Shown in pieces: positions 1 through 6,000 of a stretch of DNA of 64,000 nucleotides; the stretch's first letter is position 1, and every line of letters starts with the position of its first letter. The DNA comes from Escherichia coli. GTDB taxonomy: Bacteria; Pseudomonadota; Gammaproteobacteria; Enterobacterales; Enterobacteriaceae. The stretch lies in assembly GCF_051903065.1 (NCBI RefSeq), contig NZ_CP178438.1; one strand, 5' to 3'. A program made the position numbers.

Positions 1-3000
1 TTAAAACCATCACACGAAAAATTCAGAAGCATTACGTAATATGAATTTACAAACAATAGTGGCATAAATGTTAACCATGTTAATTTACATAAAGTTTTAC
101 GTTGCGACATTAAAGCCTCATTTCAATCATCATGATAAATATAAAATTAATATATATTTATGCCGTAAATACCAATATACTTAGCAAACTATGTGATTTC
201 CATTTCGATTGATTTAGTGTTTATTGACGTATGTACTGGATTATTAACGATAATATCGAGTTCTGGCCTGAGCACCGAAAATTAATATCGGTACATAACG
301 CCGATCTTAACGTCGTTCTGACAACGCCAGCCAGTCGTTGTTTATCACTTCTACTTGAAGCTTTTCCTGATGTGGTTGCACAACAAGATTTTTTCACCAG
401 AGTCTGGGAAGAAGAAGGTATGCGTGTGCCTACTAACACGTTATATCAGAACATATCCATTATCAGACGCGGATTTCGCGCTGTTGGTGATACTACCCAC
501 TCGCTTATTGCAACCGTGCCGAGAAGAGGATTCAAGATCCATAATGACATTAACATACAAAATCATGTAATAAACTCGTCAACAGACGCACATACACACA
601 ATGCCCCACCTGCCATAAAAGTTAATGCGGGATACAAAGAGAGCATTGGTGGCGCAAAGAATTTCAATAACAAAATCCTCAAACATATAAAAAGTTATCT
701 AATTATGTTGAGCGCATTTGTCATAGGCGCATATTCTGCATATTGGCTATGGAATAATAATCAACCGAAGCCATTTTTCAAGGATTACAAGACTGTTGCG
801 GAAATTAATGGCTGCCATTTTAATGTAACAGAAGATACAATTGATGGGTTGAAAGAGTTCGATAAATATAAAACACGGATACTGGATTCGGGGATTAACT
901 GTAAAAAATATCCGTGGTTATACTTCCCTCTTGCAAAATCCTCACCGGGGATGATTGTTATGGCATGCAATAAAAACTATAACCAACATGAAGTGGCAGG
1001 CTGTTTAACCCTGTCTTACCGTGAGGTTAATCGTGATTGATTATAAAAAAAACTTATTATTTATTGTAGTTTTTATCAGTGGGTTTATTCTCTTCACTGT
1101 CTATTCTTACACTGCAGAAAAAATGATATATAACGAAACATGCACTGCAAATTGGGTGATTTTTAATGACCAGGGGCGAGCAAATCTTACTATCGACTTT
1201 ATGTATAACCAAAAAAATAAAACAGGAACTGTTGCGTTGAGTGGGACCTGGCAACAAGGTAATAGAGAAAGTAAATCAATACGGCGAAATATTGAATACA
1301 CATGGGTTGAAAACTATGACACAGCCCATTTAACTTCAAAAAAAGTTAATAAGTTTGAGATTATGGATCAAGTCGATGATGATAGACTTGCTGAACTTAT
1401 TCCTGATTTTTATGTCTTTCCAGAAAAAAGTGTAAGCTATAATATACTAAAGCAAGGTAAACATGCTTTTATTTTGAGTATTGGTAACAGAGCAATAATG
1501 CATTGTGCAAGGTAGACTAAAATAGATAACAAAAAGATGGAACCTCGTTAATCATAAAATAATAAAATTAAATATGCTTGCAGTATATGCCAGTATAAAG
1601 CATCAAAGTTTTGATCAACATCTTTCATTTTAGACATCACCTTGCAATGTAAAATATCATGTATCAACAACATCTGGTGCATATCCATGAGTCGAACTCA
1701 ACATTCATCTTAGCTCGATTATTATTCCTTCGTACAGTCGATGTAAACAATACAGAAAGAGGATTATTAAGAACCAGTTTACTCAGTGAATCAATAGAGG
1801 AAAGGATTAACGTTTCTTTAAAAGAATTAATTTCATCATCTGTTAAACTAAACTCATCATTGACAGATCGTGAGATATAACTGTTTTTAACTTTACTCTT
1901 TACGTTGACTTTACTGACAGAATTAACATTCACATATCTTGAATTTAATGCCCATGATGTTGTTTGCGTGAGAACCTTCTCAGCATTAAGGAATTTTTTT
2001 AACGGAATCCTTGGTTTCTTTTTCGAGTCCGAATTAACTATATCATGCATATAGACCATTTCATGAATCTGCGAAAACTCAATGTCCATTATATACCTCA
2101 CATTTTTACCGTGACTCGATGTTACTGTTCAATAATCACCATCCATCAATACTAAAATTAATACCCCAAATGTGCCGATAACAAATATAGTCATTCTACG
2201 TAACGTCTCCATAAGGTGATAACCTTGATCAAATGAATTTTGAATATAATAAAGGAAATCTTTTGAGATGTTTATCACGAATAACGCTATTTATGTTACC
2301 AATATCATTTCGAGTGCGCACACTATCCATCTGTTTTTTAAGGATATAAAAAACAACATGTAAGTTATGTAAATTGCCGATGCTACTAAGTAACATTATG
2401 GTAAAAAAAGTAAAAATGAGCGATTTTTGATAGAATAAAGCAAGAGAAAAGGTGATATTTGACATTATCAGAAGCTGCGAATTCGGATTTTGCTCTAATC
2501 AAATGAGAGAAATGTAAAATGAAGCCACGAAATATTAATAATAGCCTACCACTGCAACCATTAGTTCCTGATCAGGAGAACAAAAATAAGAAAAATGAAG
2601 AGAAATTCGTTAATTCAGTTAAAATTACCATGGGGTCTGGTTTAAATTATATTGAACAAGAATCTCTTGGAGGAAAATACCTAACACATGATTTGTCAAT
2701 AAAGATAGCGGATATTTCTGAAGAGATAATTCAGCAAGCAATATTATCTGCTATGTGCATATATAAATTACCGATTACAGATGATTTAATGAGTATGGCT
2801 ACAAATGAACTCATAAAACTGACCAAAATAGAGAATAATTTAGACCTGAATAAATTCGCTACTATATGCACAGACGTTCTATCCCCCCTCGTCACCAGAC
2901 ATAATAAACAAAAAAACCAAAACGACATTCTACCCTTCGCAAAAATCCCCTTTTTAATTTTCATTGAAAAAAAGGAAATTGATAATATGAATCCAGGTCA

Positions 3001-6000
3001 TGCACATTAGGGCATTTTGAAATGTCGTAATTAAGATAACTAATAAGGTGAATATTAGCAAAACAACTAATGATGTTATTATTTTGTAGCGGCAAGTATT
3101 TTTACTAATAACGAAGAAATATACTCATAAGCAATGCAAGCTTAAAACCAATAATTTAAAAAAGATAAATGTAATAATATTAATGAGTCAATCAATAATA
3201 ATTGAGCATCACGAGACACATCACAGAGGAATATTATGAACAAAGAAACAATTGAAATATTCAATAATAGTGATGAATGGGCAAATCAACTAAAACACGC
3301 ATTATCGAAAGGAGAAAACCTGGCATTACTGCATGGTTTAACTCCTGATATCCTTGATGGAATATATGCATATGCATTCGACTACCATGAAAAGGGTAAT
3401 ATAACGGACGCAGAAATTTATTATAAATTATTGTGCATTTATGCGTTCGAAAATCATGAATATCTAAAAGGTTTTGCATCAGTATGTCAGTCAAAAAAGA
3501 AATATCAACAAGCATATGACCTTTACAAACTAAGTTACAATTACTCCCCATATGATGACTATTCAGTTATTTATCGTATGGGTCAATGTCAAATTGGCGC
3601 AAAAAATATCGATAACGCAATGCAATGTTTCTTTCATATAATTAACAATTGTGAGGATGATAGTGTTAAGAGTAAAGCGCAGGCATATGTCGAACTCTTA
3701 ACCGATAATTCAGAAGATAATGATTAAGCATTACAATCATTTGGTTAAAATTGCTGGTTATAGTGCAGTTAACCACTATAACCAGTACCTCTTATCTTTT
3801 CTTAAACCAACATCTTAAAACAGTTAAGAGCACACTATAAATCATTATTTTTCAATGCGTTAGAGAACAATCTATTTTATCAAAATTGAATAAGGCTATT
3901 TCAGATTACATCACTGAATTCCTAAGATAAATTAGTGAACACAACCATAGATATGTCGAATGTAATTTCCTGTAGCGTTAATGACACATAAATATGAATA
4001 GCCATAATTTCTATTGCTTATGCAGGATGCAAGAAACCAATTTTTTCATAGAGGTTAACTAATGGACTTAGAAAATAAATTCTCATATCATTTTCTTGAG
4101 GGATTAACGCTCACGGAAGATGGAATTCTTACTCAAGGAAATGAGCAAGTTTATATTCCACCGAAAGAGTTAGGTGTATTAATAGTATTACTTGAATCCG
4201 CTGGTCATGTTGTACTGAAAGATATGATCATCGAATCAGTATGGAAAAATATTATTGTTAGTGACGAGTCCCTGACAAGATGTATCTATTCTTTGCGCTG
4301 CATTTTTGAAAAAATTGGCTATGATCGCTGCATAGAAACAATCTACCGGAAAGGTTATCGTTTCAGCGGGCAGGTTTTCAAAACTAAAATTAATGAAGAT
4401 AATACTTCAGACTATTCCATAGCTATATTCCCTTTCACCACTTCATTGAATACACTGGATCCATTAATACTTAATCAGGAATTAGTACAAATCATTTCAA
4501 ATAAAAAAATCGATGGTCTCTATACCTATCCGATGGCTGCGACAAATTTTTGTAATGACCACATATCTCAAAATTCATTCTTGAGCAGATTCAAGCCAGA
4601 TTATTTCGTTACAGGAAGAATAAACCAGAATAATGCAGTGAATACTTTATACATTGAGTTGATCGACGCTAAAAACCTTTTCCTCATCGCCAGTAATCAT
4701 CTCCCTGTTGATGAACTACATAATACATCACAATTTATTATAGATAATATCCTTCAAACGGTACATAAACCAGAACGATCTGTGAGATTAGCTAAGCAGG
4801 ACCAAGGATATAAGAATCATTATTTATCAGATGAAATGTTAGCCGGAAAGAAAGAACTTTACGAGTTCACCCCTGAAAGCATTTACAGGGCCATGACTAT
4901 ATTTGATGGATTACAAAATAAAAGTGATATACAGACGCTAAAAACAGAATGTTATTGCCTTCTAGCGGAATGCCATATGTCTTTGGCACTTCATGGAAAA
5001 AGTGAACTTGAACTTGCTGCTCAAAAAGCATTAGAGCTTTTAGATTATGTATCAAACATAACCAATGTCGATGGAAAAATTTTAGCTATTATGGGACTGA
5101 TAACTGGCCTGTCTGGACAAGCAAAAGTATCTCATATCTTATTTGAACAGGCTAAGATACACTCAACTGATATAGCCTCTCTCTACTACTATAGGGCACT
5201 TGTCAACTTTCATAATGAAAAAATTGAAGAGGCAAGGATTTGTATAGACAAATCACTACAACTCGAACCCAGAAGACGAAAAGCAGTTGTGATAAAAGAA
5301 TGTGTAGATATGTATGTGCCTAACCCGCTCAAAAACAACGGCTTTGTTGAATAAATCAGATTTCGGGTAAGTCTCCCCCGTAGCGGGTTGTGTTTTCAGG
5401 CAATACGCACGCTTTCAGGCATACCTGCTTTCGTCATTTTGTTCAGCGCTCGTACCAGGGCCATAGCCTCTGCAACCTGACCATCGTAGTCACGCAGTGT
5501 CAGTGAACCCCCGAACAGCTGTTTTACCCGGTACATCGCCGTTTCCGCTATCGAGCGACGGTTGTAATCTGTTGTCCATTTCCACCGCGCATTACTCCCG
5601 GTCATTCGCTGATTAGCCACTGCACGGTTACGGTCTGCATATTCACCGGGCCAGTAACCCGCACCTTTTCGGGGAGGGATAAGCGCGCTGATTTTCTTAC
5701 GCCGCAGTTCATCGTGACATAGCCGGGTATCGTAAGCGCCATCGGCGGCGGCTGACCTGATTTTCCGGTGGGTTTGCCGGATTAACCCGGGGAAGGCCTC
5801 TGAGTCCGTAACGTTGTTCAGCGACAGGTCAGCGCAGATGATTTCATGTGTTTTACTGTCAACGGCGAGATGCAGCTTACGCCAGATACGGCGGCGTTCC
5901 TGGCCATGCTTTTTGACTTTCCACTCGCCTTCACCGAAGACCTTCAGCCCGGTGGAATCAATTACCAGGTGTGCGATTTCACCCCGGGTGGGCGTTTTGA

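Follow-up and report, generated by a model that had tools for sequence, protein, structure and literature searches.

An intact ygeF allele in the ETT2 island of an Escherichia coli strain, and its frameshifted counterparts

The ygeF locus raises a simple question: is the open frame carried by some Escherichia coli strains an intact gene, and what does that mean when the K-12 allele is annotated as a pseudogene? A preliminary description of the DNA analysed here (a stretch of 64,000 nucleotides from E. coli contig NZ_CP178438.1, assembly GCF_051903065.1, hereafter the window) had pointed to a single uninterrupted ygeF frame, possibly the ancestral form of the gene. Our analysis indicates that positions 2519-3010 very probably represent an intact ygeF allele, a small, fast-evolving and Escherichia-only gene in the regulator/chaperone end of ETT2. 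The intact gene was already known, being both annotated and common, and the finding is correct and ordinary.

The ygeF frame and its surroundings

The ORF listing and the PGAP annotation agree on one continuous coding sequence at 2519..3010 on the plus strand, with 163 codons, an ATG start and a TAG stop. Its product is 100% identical to RefSeq WP_001625828.1, which is found on at least 1000 public contigs and which PGAP assigns, as a 'hypothetical protein', to the ygeF CDS of the identical genome NZ_AP045789.1; it is also 90-96% identical to 163-aa proteins named 'YgeF protein' in their sources. The frame itself holds no stop codon, while the other five frames hold between 4 and 21 over the same region, which has a GC content of 30.6%. 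The ORF exceeds the length expected by chance, since only 8 of 5000 first-order Markov simulations of positions 2101-3235 contained an open frame at least 163 codons long. The AT-rich island previously proposed around the gene was also recovered, with GC contents of 31-45% as far as about 16 kb and about 50% past that point.

Upstream of the start codon, a purine-rich GAGAGA (2505..2510, plus strand), 8 nt 5' of the ATG, may act as a weak ribosome-binding site and is kept in every E. coli allele examined. Around ygeF, promoter-like sites were no more frequent than expected by chance and no terminator was predicted, including between ygeF and ygeG; an Rfam scan of positions 1500-4100 returned no RNA family.

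The locus belongs to the ETT2 island adjoining glyU, and the gene order yqeH-yqeI-yqeJ-yqeL-yqeK-ygeF-ygeG-ygeH is common to K-12 and to the identical RefSeq genome. Specifically, the upstream neighbour yqeK (1664..2089, minus strand) is divergently oriented and its product has no family match. The downstream neighbour ygeG (3236..3727, plus strand) follows on the same strand after a gap of 225 bp and encodes a SicA/LcrH-like TPR chaperone of class II type III secretion, matching TPR_3 (E=1.7e-22), the SicA model (E=5.5e-36, with a score short of the curated cut-off) and the LcrH/SycD model. GadX binding peaks have been mapped at yqeK, ygeF and ygeH in K-12 (PMC4918353). In the window strain the ETT2 apparatus has been destroyed by an IS903B-linked deletion and by a stop codon in eivC; therefore, the intact ygeF is no sign of a working system.

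The K-12 and O157 alleles and the A-rich tract

By comparing the window with named ygeF genes over 491 nt, we obtained DNA identities of 95.5% for the K-12-like allele and 96.1% for the O157 allele; together with the yqeK and ygeG flanks, these values establish the ORF as ygeF. The alignment likewise bears out the earlier statement that the K-12 gene is disrupted. In MG1655, b2850 (2990554..2991043, 490 bp) is annotated as a pseudogene at the same orthologous locus: its first 129 codons run collinear with the window and differ from it by 10 nonsynonymous and 4 synonymous changes, while a tract reading G-A7-C carries a net loss of 2 nt and the frame is lost after about codon 132. The K-12 frame is thus not open through 163 codons, and its product ends at 148 aa with an unrelated tail (UniProt YGEF_ECOLI), as opposed to 163 aa in the window.

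The O157:H7 allele (Sakai ECs3707; UniProt C3SW88, 'YgeF protein'), reported as 492 bp in length (PMC3977695), matches the window in its 163 codons, its start and stop, its yqeK and ygeG flanks and its full-length upstream intergenic region. The two genes differ by 14 nonsynonymous and 5 synonymous changes, and their tracts read A6-GTC-A4 in O157 and A7-CC-A4 in the window. No indel or premature stop separates the window ORF from the 163-aa alleles of O157, ETEC4067, F8111 and 20KM2228, with which it is collinear. The window allele, about 95.5% identical to that of K-12, is on these alignments a separate lineage, from which the K-12 allele does not directly descend.

In the window, the A-rich tract AAAC-A7-CC-A4 (2906..2922, plus strand) covers codons 130-135 (K-Q-K-N-Q-N) and is in frame. 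The homologous tract of K-12-like alleles, G(A)nC at codons 131-134, exists in three lengths, which are almost the only differences among these alleles. G(A)9C, rare and found in strain 20KM2228, is in frame and gives 163 aa; G(A)8C, the form of B1-type strains, produces a -1 frameshift, and PGAP labels it 'frameshifted'; G(A)7C produces a -2 frameshift in K-12 and F5. Judged from this series, K-12 ygeF is shown to have been broken through contraction of a homopolymeric A run. The order of the events is ambiguous, as A9 may have shortened to A8 and then to A7, or other paths may have been followed. In strain 48, an independent -1 frameshift lies in a second A tract.

A further lesion of most K-12-like alleles is the loss of 236 bp 5' of the gene. 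The corresponding yqeK-ygeF intergenic stretch, kept in the window (2213..2448) and deleted in K-12 and B1-type alleles, is bounded by two copies of the 9-bp direct repeat AAGGTGATA, the left one at 2213..2221 and the right one at 2449..2457, both on the plus strand. The A7 frameshift and the deletion are separable events, because strain F5 carries the former and retains the 236 bp.

The tract could also be read as a functional switch, with ygeF being phase-variable or rescued by slippage and the A8 and A7 forms representing OFF or low-expression states. Runs of 8-9 A are prone to slippage, and run length is nearly the sole variable among K-12-like alleles. Shigella T3SS genes such as mxiE undergo transcriptional slippage, and ygeF resembles these genes and contingency loci in that the length of an A run within the ORF sets the frame and in its location on a T3SS island. 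It differs from them in that the length of its tract appears to be fixed by lineage in the sampled strains: K-12 derivatives and many others carry A7, SE11, LY180 and the O111 strains all carry A8, close relatives do not appear to vary, and A9 was met only once among about 43 sampled K-12-like alleles. In addition, the same alleles also lack the 236 bp upstream. A switch would not apply to the window allele, since its tract is interrupted (A7, then CC); the long uninterrupted homopolymer of a contingency locus is missing here, whereas K-12-like alleles carry A7 to A9. We regard a switch as very improbable, and give slightly less credit still to the related idea that the phylogroup A and B1 'pseudogenes' might still allow some YgeF to be made at full length, by slippage during transcription or replication, which would make YgeF a tunable ETT2-linked factor.

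Frequency, ancestry and selective constraint

Of 5426 genomes, 3582 carry the ygeF locus. In two evenly spaced samples of full-length matches from locus-bearing complete genomes, each comprising 59 matches, intact, -1 and -2 alleles numbered 18, 19 and 22 in the first and 16, 23 and 20 in the second. Intact ygeF thus accounts for about 27-31% of the sampled locus-bearing complete genomes, O157:H7 among them. That the 163-codon form is ancestral, as had been suggested for this strain, is upheld by its occurrence in the divergent window/F8111, O157, ETEC4067-like and K-12-like A9 (20KM2228) lineages.

A deeper comparison was provided by the divergent ortholog P0133 (L008, Logan SRR36547128), which lies in the same yqeI, yqeJ, yqeK, ygeF, ygeG synteny as in the window and shares the motifs LPLQPL, LSIKI and ELIKLTKIE with the window protein. 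It is only 48% identical to window YgeF, whereas the neighbouring genes of L008 are 83-98% identical, and it ends at 132 aa because of a stop codon and a frameshift, the latter at the A-rich site discussed above. As further support for the ancestral length, its C-terminal tail can still be made out in another frame: the +1 frame of L008 reads FVKILFIIFIER, a stop, KNTINYDHVH and a further stop, to be compared with FAKIPFLIFIEKKEIDNMNPGHAH and a stop in the window.

Such lesions bring forward the possibility that ygeF is intact in form alone, a functionless relic drifting neutrally in a lineage so far spared. About 70% of the sampled locus-bearing genomes are frameshifted, and the lesions of strain 48 and L008 arose independently. 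Most E. coli have the gene either in frameshifted form or not at all; it is reported absent in all E. albertii, even with a near-intact ETT2 (bioRxiv 10.1101/2021.02.01.429068), and YgeF homologs are found in no organism outside Escherichia. The window strain itself lacks ETT2 apparatus genes and carries the eivC stop codon, and several E. coli pairs show omega values of 0.7-0.97.

Against neutral drift stands the fact that a frame of 163 codons in 31% GC DNA has been kept by at least four allele lineages lying 4-6% apart. Between the window and P0133/L008, dN is 0.37 and dS 0.70, giving an omega of 0.53, and in the same pair pS (0.453) clearly exceeds pN (0.292), the two being about 2.7 SE apart; yqeK and ygeG show omega values of about 0.2 in the L008 comparison. 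Within the species, the dN/dS estimates are high and noisy, ranging from 0.19 to 0.82 for intact pairs, with 0.7 for the window and O157, and comparisons with ETEC4067 give 0.19-0.35. Moreover, LPLQPL and ELIKLTKIE stay unchanged even where overall identity falls to 48%. Taken as evolutionary evidence, these data suggest that the constraint on ygeF is weak but real, and a functionless relic appears doubtful, if clearly more plausible than a switch. The gene would instead be under weak purifying selection while suffering mutational attrition in one lineage after another, mostly from slipped-strand errors in its A tracts.

The YgeF protein and its possible partners

Searches for relatives of YgeF gave no significant family assignment, the best matches being at E=0.062 in Pfam, E=0.15 in PHROGs and E=0.21 among PDB sequences, with none in NCBIfam. 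Most of the 22 matches returned by a phmmer search of 1.84 billion representatives were Escherichia-like fragments; the divergent P0133 was also among them, and the sole outside match, a 37%-identical repeat protein, was dismissed as spurious. An alignment scan of the GTDB species representatives yielded no confirmed relative; the scan says little about E. coli itself, because the representative of this species is probably a B2 strain devoid of the ygeF locus. On plasmids, tblastn recovered only two chromosomes mislabelled as plasmids, and no plasmid-borne T3SS gave a match. YgeF is, as far as these database searches extend, an orphan confined to Escherichia. Literature searches on ECs3707, Z4175 and b2850 brought nothing further.

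The structural predictions were of limited use. AlphaFold2 with an alignment of 16 rows gave a poor model of YgeF (pLDDT 49), and the best Foldseek match to the PDB (E=2) is meaningless at this pLDDT. The N-terminal 36 residues are predicted to be disordered and are rich in N, K and P. In our tentative picture, this disordered N-terminus would be followed by some 95 residues forming a helical core and then by a short hydrophobic tail, and the protein might be an accessory factor linked to ETT2, either as a secretion substrate or as a regulatory partner. The needle, ring and export-gate genes of ETT2 are deleted in the window strain, so that YgeF, if ETT2-linked, cannot act through ETT2 here.

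Two other assignments were discarded. The segment DDLMSMATNELIKL is loosely like the acyl-carrier-protein motif DSLDTVEL, with a misfit of the register and no PP-binding Pfam match, and an IpgB-like WxxxE effector is at odds with a protein that has no tryptophan and no Pfam match; in Shigella, ipgB1 lies upstream of ipgC.

In a more specific proposal, YgeF would serve the adjacent class II chaperone YgeG as a substrate or would bind to it as a partner; it would be a small secreted effector or regulator, with the signal for secretion or chaperone binding in its disordered N-terminus. The proposal draws on the position of ygeF 5' of ygeG, on the same strand and with no predicted terminator in the 225-bp gap, on the SicA and LcrH/SycD matches of YgeG, and on the predicted disorder of the N/K/P-rich N-terminal residues, which include the invariant LPLQPL. 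The (P/V)xLxxP chaperone-binding consensus derives from the IpgC-IpaB and PcrH-PopD structures; this motif was not found in YgeF, whose residues 9-17 read SLPLQPLVP, with no register that fits PxLxxP. An AlphaFold model of a YgeG-(GGGGS)6-YgeF fusion, built on a shallow alignment of 12 rows in which the last five YgeG residues of three rows were filled from the window sequence, placed YgeG at pLDDT 70-90 and YgeF at only 24-49; confidence rose in no part of YgeF and no sign of docking was seen, so that the model lends no support to a chaperone-substrate complex. Gene order elsewhere speaks against the pairing. In Providencia, Salmonella and Pantoea plasmids, the canonical SicA/IpgC genes are arranged as sctU or spaS, chaperone and sctE with no ygeF-like gene, in Shigella ipgC is followed by ipaB, and the plasmid-borne T3SS yielded no YgeF match. 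A positional counterpart of ygeF in other SPI-1-like systems was sought and not found, sicA directly following sctU. All together, we consider a partnership with YgeG unlikely, less so than a switch at the A tract.

For the biology of the island, the comparison identifies K-12 as an atypical, decayed reference for ygeF, a point of small significance in itself. Work on YgeF would be better carried out with an intact allele (O157, window-type or ETEC4067-like) in a strain with a complete ETT2. As a modest by-product, the A9/A8/A7 series, the repeat-bounded 236-bp deletion and the independent lesions provide a precise account of decay, and the fate of ygeF shows the 'mutational attrition' of ETT2 down to the single nucleotide.

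Reading frame of ygeF in the window and in K-12

The preliminary description had presented ygeF, a small gene of the ETT2 type III secretion island lying between yqeK and ygeG, as a continuous 163-codon ORF in AT-rich DNA, disrupted in K-12. ORF listing placed the 163 codons, from an ATG start to a TAG stop, at positions 2519-3010 of the plus strand; the frame is free of stops, the remaining five carrying 4-21, and of 5000 simulations of the yqeK-ygeG interval matched for composition, only 8 reached an open frame of 163 codons. In addition, PGAP annotates ygeF as a CDS (WP_001625828.1, 'hypothetical protein') in E. 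coli 23CRST027 (NZ_AP045789.1; human faeces, Ecuador), which is essentially identical to the window. The stop-free frame, its length relative to the simulations and its annotation therefore confirm the single ORF. The surrounding AT-rich island (31-45% GC) reaches ~16 kb in the window, in agreement with the location proposed.

The order yqeH-yqeI-yqeJ-(yqeL)-yqeK-ygeF-ygeG-ygeH is common to the window and K-12. The disruption in K-12 also held true: ygeF (b2850) is annotated in MG1655 as a 490-bp pseudogene, and pairwise alignment with the in-frame window copy showed a net loss of 2 nt in K-12 inside an A-rich tract, which leaves a 148-aa ORF whose tail is unrelated. UniProt YGEF_ECOLI is this 148-aa product.

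Lesions within and upstream of ygeF

The lesion site was worked out from an alignment of eight ygeF alleles. Specifically, the tract of K-12-like alleles reads G(A)nC and occupies codons 131-134. With nine A residues (A9), the 20KM2228 allele (701-1192 of its locus, L020) is in frame and intact at 163 aa (…HNKEKKTNDILPF…), despite a 236-bp upstream deletion; A8 alleles (E2865, LY180) are shifted by -1 and flagged 'frameshifted' by PGAP, and A7 alleles (K-12, F5, 914033) by -2. The window allele carries an interrupted tract, C-A7-CC-A4 (2906-2922), with the frame kept. In strain 48 (L021, 701-1191) the main tract is in frame and a second run is shortened from A6 to A5 near codon 150, an inactivation independent of the main-tract frameshifts.

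The 236 bp of yqeK-ygeF intergenic DNA (window 2213-2448) are missing from most K-12-like alleles, including the K-12 and B1-type ones. In the allele alignment, the deletion ends fall exactly between two copies of a 9-bp direct repeat, AAGGTGATA (2213-2221 and 2449-2457), a signature that points to deletion by slippage or illegitimate recombination. The two lesions arose as separate events, since strain F5 carries the A7 frameshift with the 236 bp still in place.

The same intergenic region holds a 78-codon antisense ORF (2229-2465, minus strand; MSNITFSLALFYQKSLIFTFF…), which is open in all long-intergenic E. coli alleles checked (O157, ETEC4067, F8111, F5), absent in the divergent Escherichia locus L008, removed by the K-12 deletion and left without PGAP annotation. 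Family searches with it gave no match; it may be a small gene that has escaped annotation, or an ORF open by chance in AT-rich sequence.

Relatives, selection and possible function of YgeF

YgeF is an orphan: it returned nothing significant in Pfam, NCBIfam, PHROGs or PDB sequences, and no relatives in plasmids or among GTDB species representatives. Among 1.84 billion representative proteins it had 22 matches, nearly all Escherichia-like fragments, the single informative relative being P0133 (48% identity, 132 aa) from the syntenic locus L008. The neighbours in L008 are far more conserved (YqeI 98%, YqeJ 96%, YqeK 83%, YgeG 85%). Codon analysis of ygeF against L008 gave dN 0.37, dS 0.70 and omega 0.53, compared with 0.09-0.20 for the neighbours. 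By our own calculation pS (0.453) exceeds pN (0.292) by ~2.7 standard errors, and thus some purifying selection has acted on ygeF; inside E. coli, omega values run from 0.19 to 0.97, resting on very few substitutions.

The L008 ygeF is frameshifted at the same A-rich site, a further independent decay; its +1 frame reads FVKILFIIFIER*…, against FAKIPFLIFIEKKE… in the window. Since the hydrophobic tail is still spelled in that frame, the 163-codon architecture is ancestral, and the view that this strain retains the ancestral intact allele is upheld. E. albertii has been reported without ygeF, even with ETT2 otherwise nearly intact (bioRxiv 10.1101/2021.02.01.429068).

L008 (1-4304, Logan SRR36547128; also L009) is an Escherichia locus covering the left end of ETT2 and mosaic in composition, with DNA identity to the window of ~97% over yqeI/yqeJ and 80-88% from yqeK onward; its ygeF is 61-66% identical, below its flanking intergenic DNA. 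This allele occurs in no complete E. coli genome, the best match being 83%.

The AlphaFold2 model of YgeF, built from 16 sequences, was poor (mean pLDDT 49), with residues 1-36 disordered, helices over 38-131 and an uncertain tail; Foldseek of this model against PDB gave no match (best E=2). LPLQPL (residues 10-15), LSIKI and ELIKLxKIE are among the motifs that stay unchanged even at 48% identity, and neither PxLxxP nor WxxxE is present in YgeF. As the downstream ygeG encodes a SicA/LcrH-like TPR chaperone, YgeF was assessed as its client through a YgeG-linker-YgeF fusion model, with seven chaperone homologs added to the alignment (IpgC, four plasmid-borne SicA or LcrH, one from Nitratidesulfovibrio and Providencia SicA). 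YgeG was modelled at pLDDT 70-90, and YgeF at 24-49 with no gain anywhere. No ygeF-like gene lies upstream of canonical SicA or IpgC genes.

AT-rich, probably H-NS-coated DNA, rather than essentiality, would account for the few transposon insertions in ygeF, a reading absent from the paper describing them. The low insertion frequency comes from TraDIS (PMC5821084), and GadX binding peaks have been reported at yqeK, ygeF and ygeH in K-12 (PMC4918353). Tentatively, YgeF might have an accessory role linked to ETT2, as a substrate for secretion or as a partner in regulation, a proposal in which our confidence is low.

Among the PLSDB records NZ_OL790696.1, NZ_CP134663.1 and NZ_CP134361.1 (L013), two 'plasmids' of 4.8-4.9 Mb are evidently chromosomes. 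With nlpA, yicS and an IpaD/SipD-family needle-tip gene on it, the 13-kb 'plasmid' pMTY13936_3 looks like a chromosomal fragment; its region 48.8% identical to YgeG, without PGAP annotation, is probably the eip-cluster chaperone gene eicA.

Frequency of intact ygeF and state of ETT2

Of 5426 complete E. coli genomes, 3582 carry the ygeF locus, with identity to K-12 ygeF of at least 99% in 2207, 95-99% in 786 and 90-95% in 589. In samples of 59 evenly spaced full-length hits, judged intact by length, the window allele as query gave 18 intact, 19 shifted by -1 and 22 by -2, and the K-12 allele 16, 23 and 20, respectively; hence, ~27-31% of locus-bearing genomes are intact. These include all sampled O157:H7 and the ETEC4067-like group. 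With K-12 derivatives belonging to phylogroup A, and SE11, LY180 and the O111 strains to B1, A7 and A8 appear to be fixed by lineage. The window-type allele is in the minority (38 genomes at no less than 99% identity), and at least 1000 public contigs encode the exact window protein.

The K-12 pseudogene status already stands in the reference annotation. Annotation likewise exists for the intact allele, which is frequent and has appeared in publications from the O157 genomes onwards; a review from 2014 (PMC3977695) gives ECs3707 (O157 Sakai) as 492 bp. The finding is thus ordinary. What is new here is small: it spells out the route of decay, with the A9, A8, A7 homopolymer series, an upstream deletion bounded by repeats, and a number of lesions that arose independently.

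Outside the island, the core gene actS (ygeR, amidase activator; 15931-16686, minus strand) has a premature stop at ~codon 209 of 251, an 'internal stop' per PGAP.

Within ETT2, an IS903B element (~5355-6411; transposase ORF 5396-6364, minus strand) truncates ygeH at codon 426 of 458 and connects it directly to eivC/sctN, a junction found only in 2 of 5426 complete genomes (23CRST027 and 23CRST031). The genes from ygeI through eivI, encoding needle, rings and export gate with the SctRSTU and SctQ homologs, are absent, and eivC (sctN), the ETT2 ATPase (6382-7659, minus strand), has an in-frame stop after '…ILDGHI', also an 'internal stop' in PGAP. In conclusion, the ETT2 of this strain does not work as a secretion machine; with the apparatus genes lost and eivC stopped, the intact ygeF sits in a dead system.
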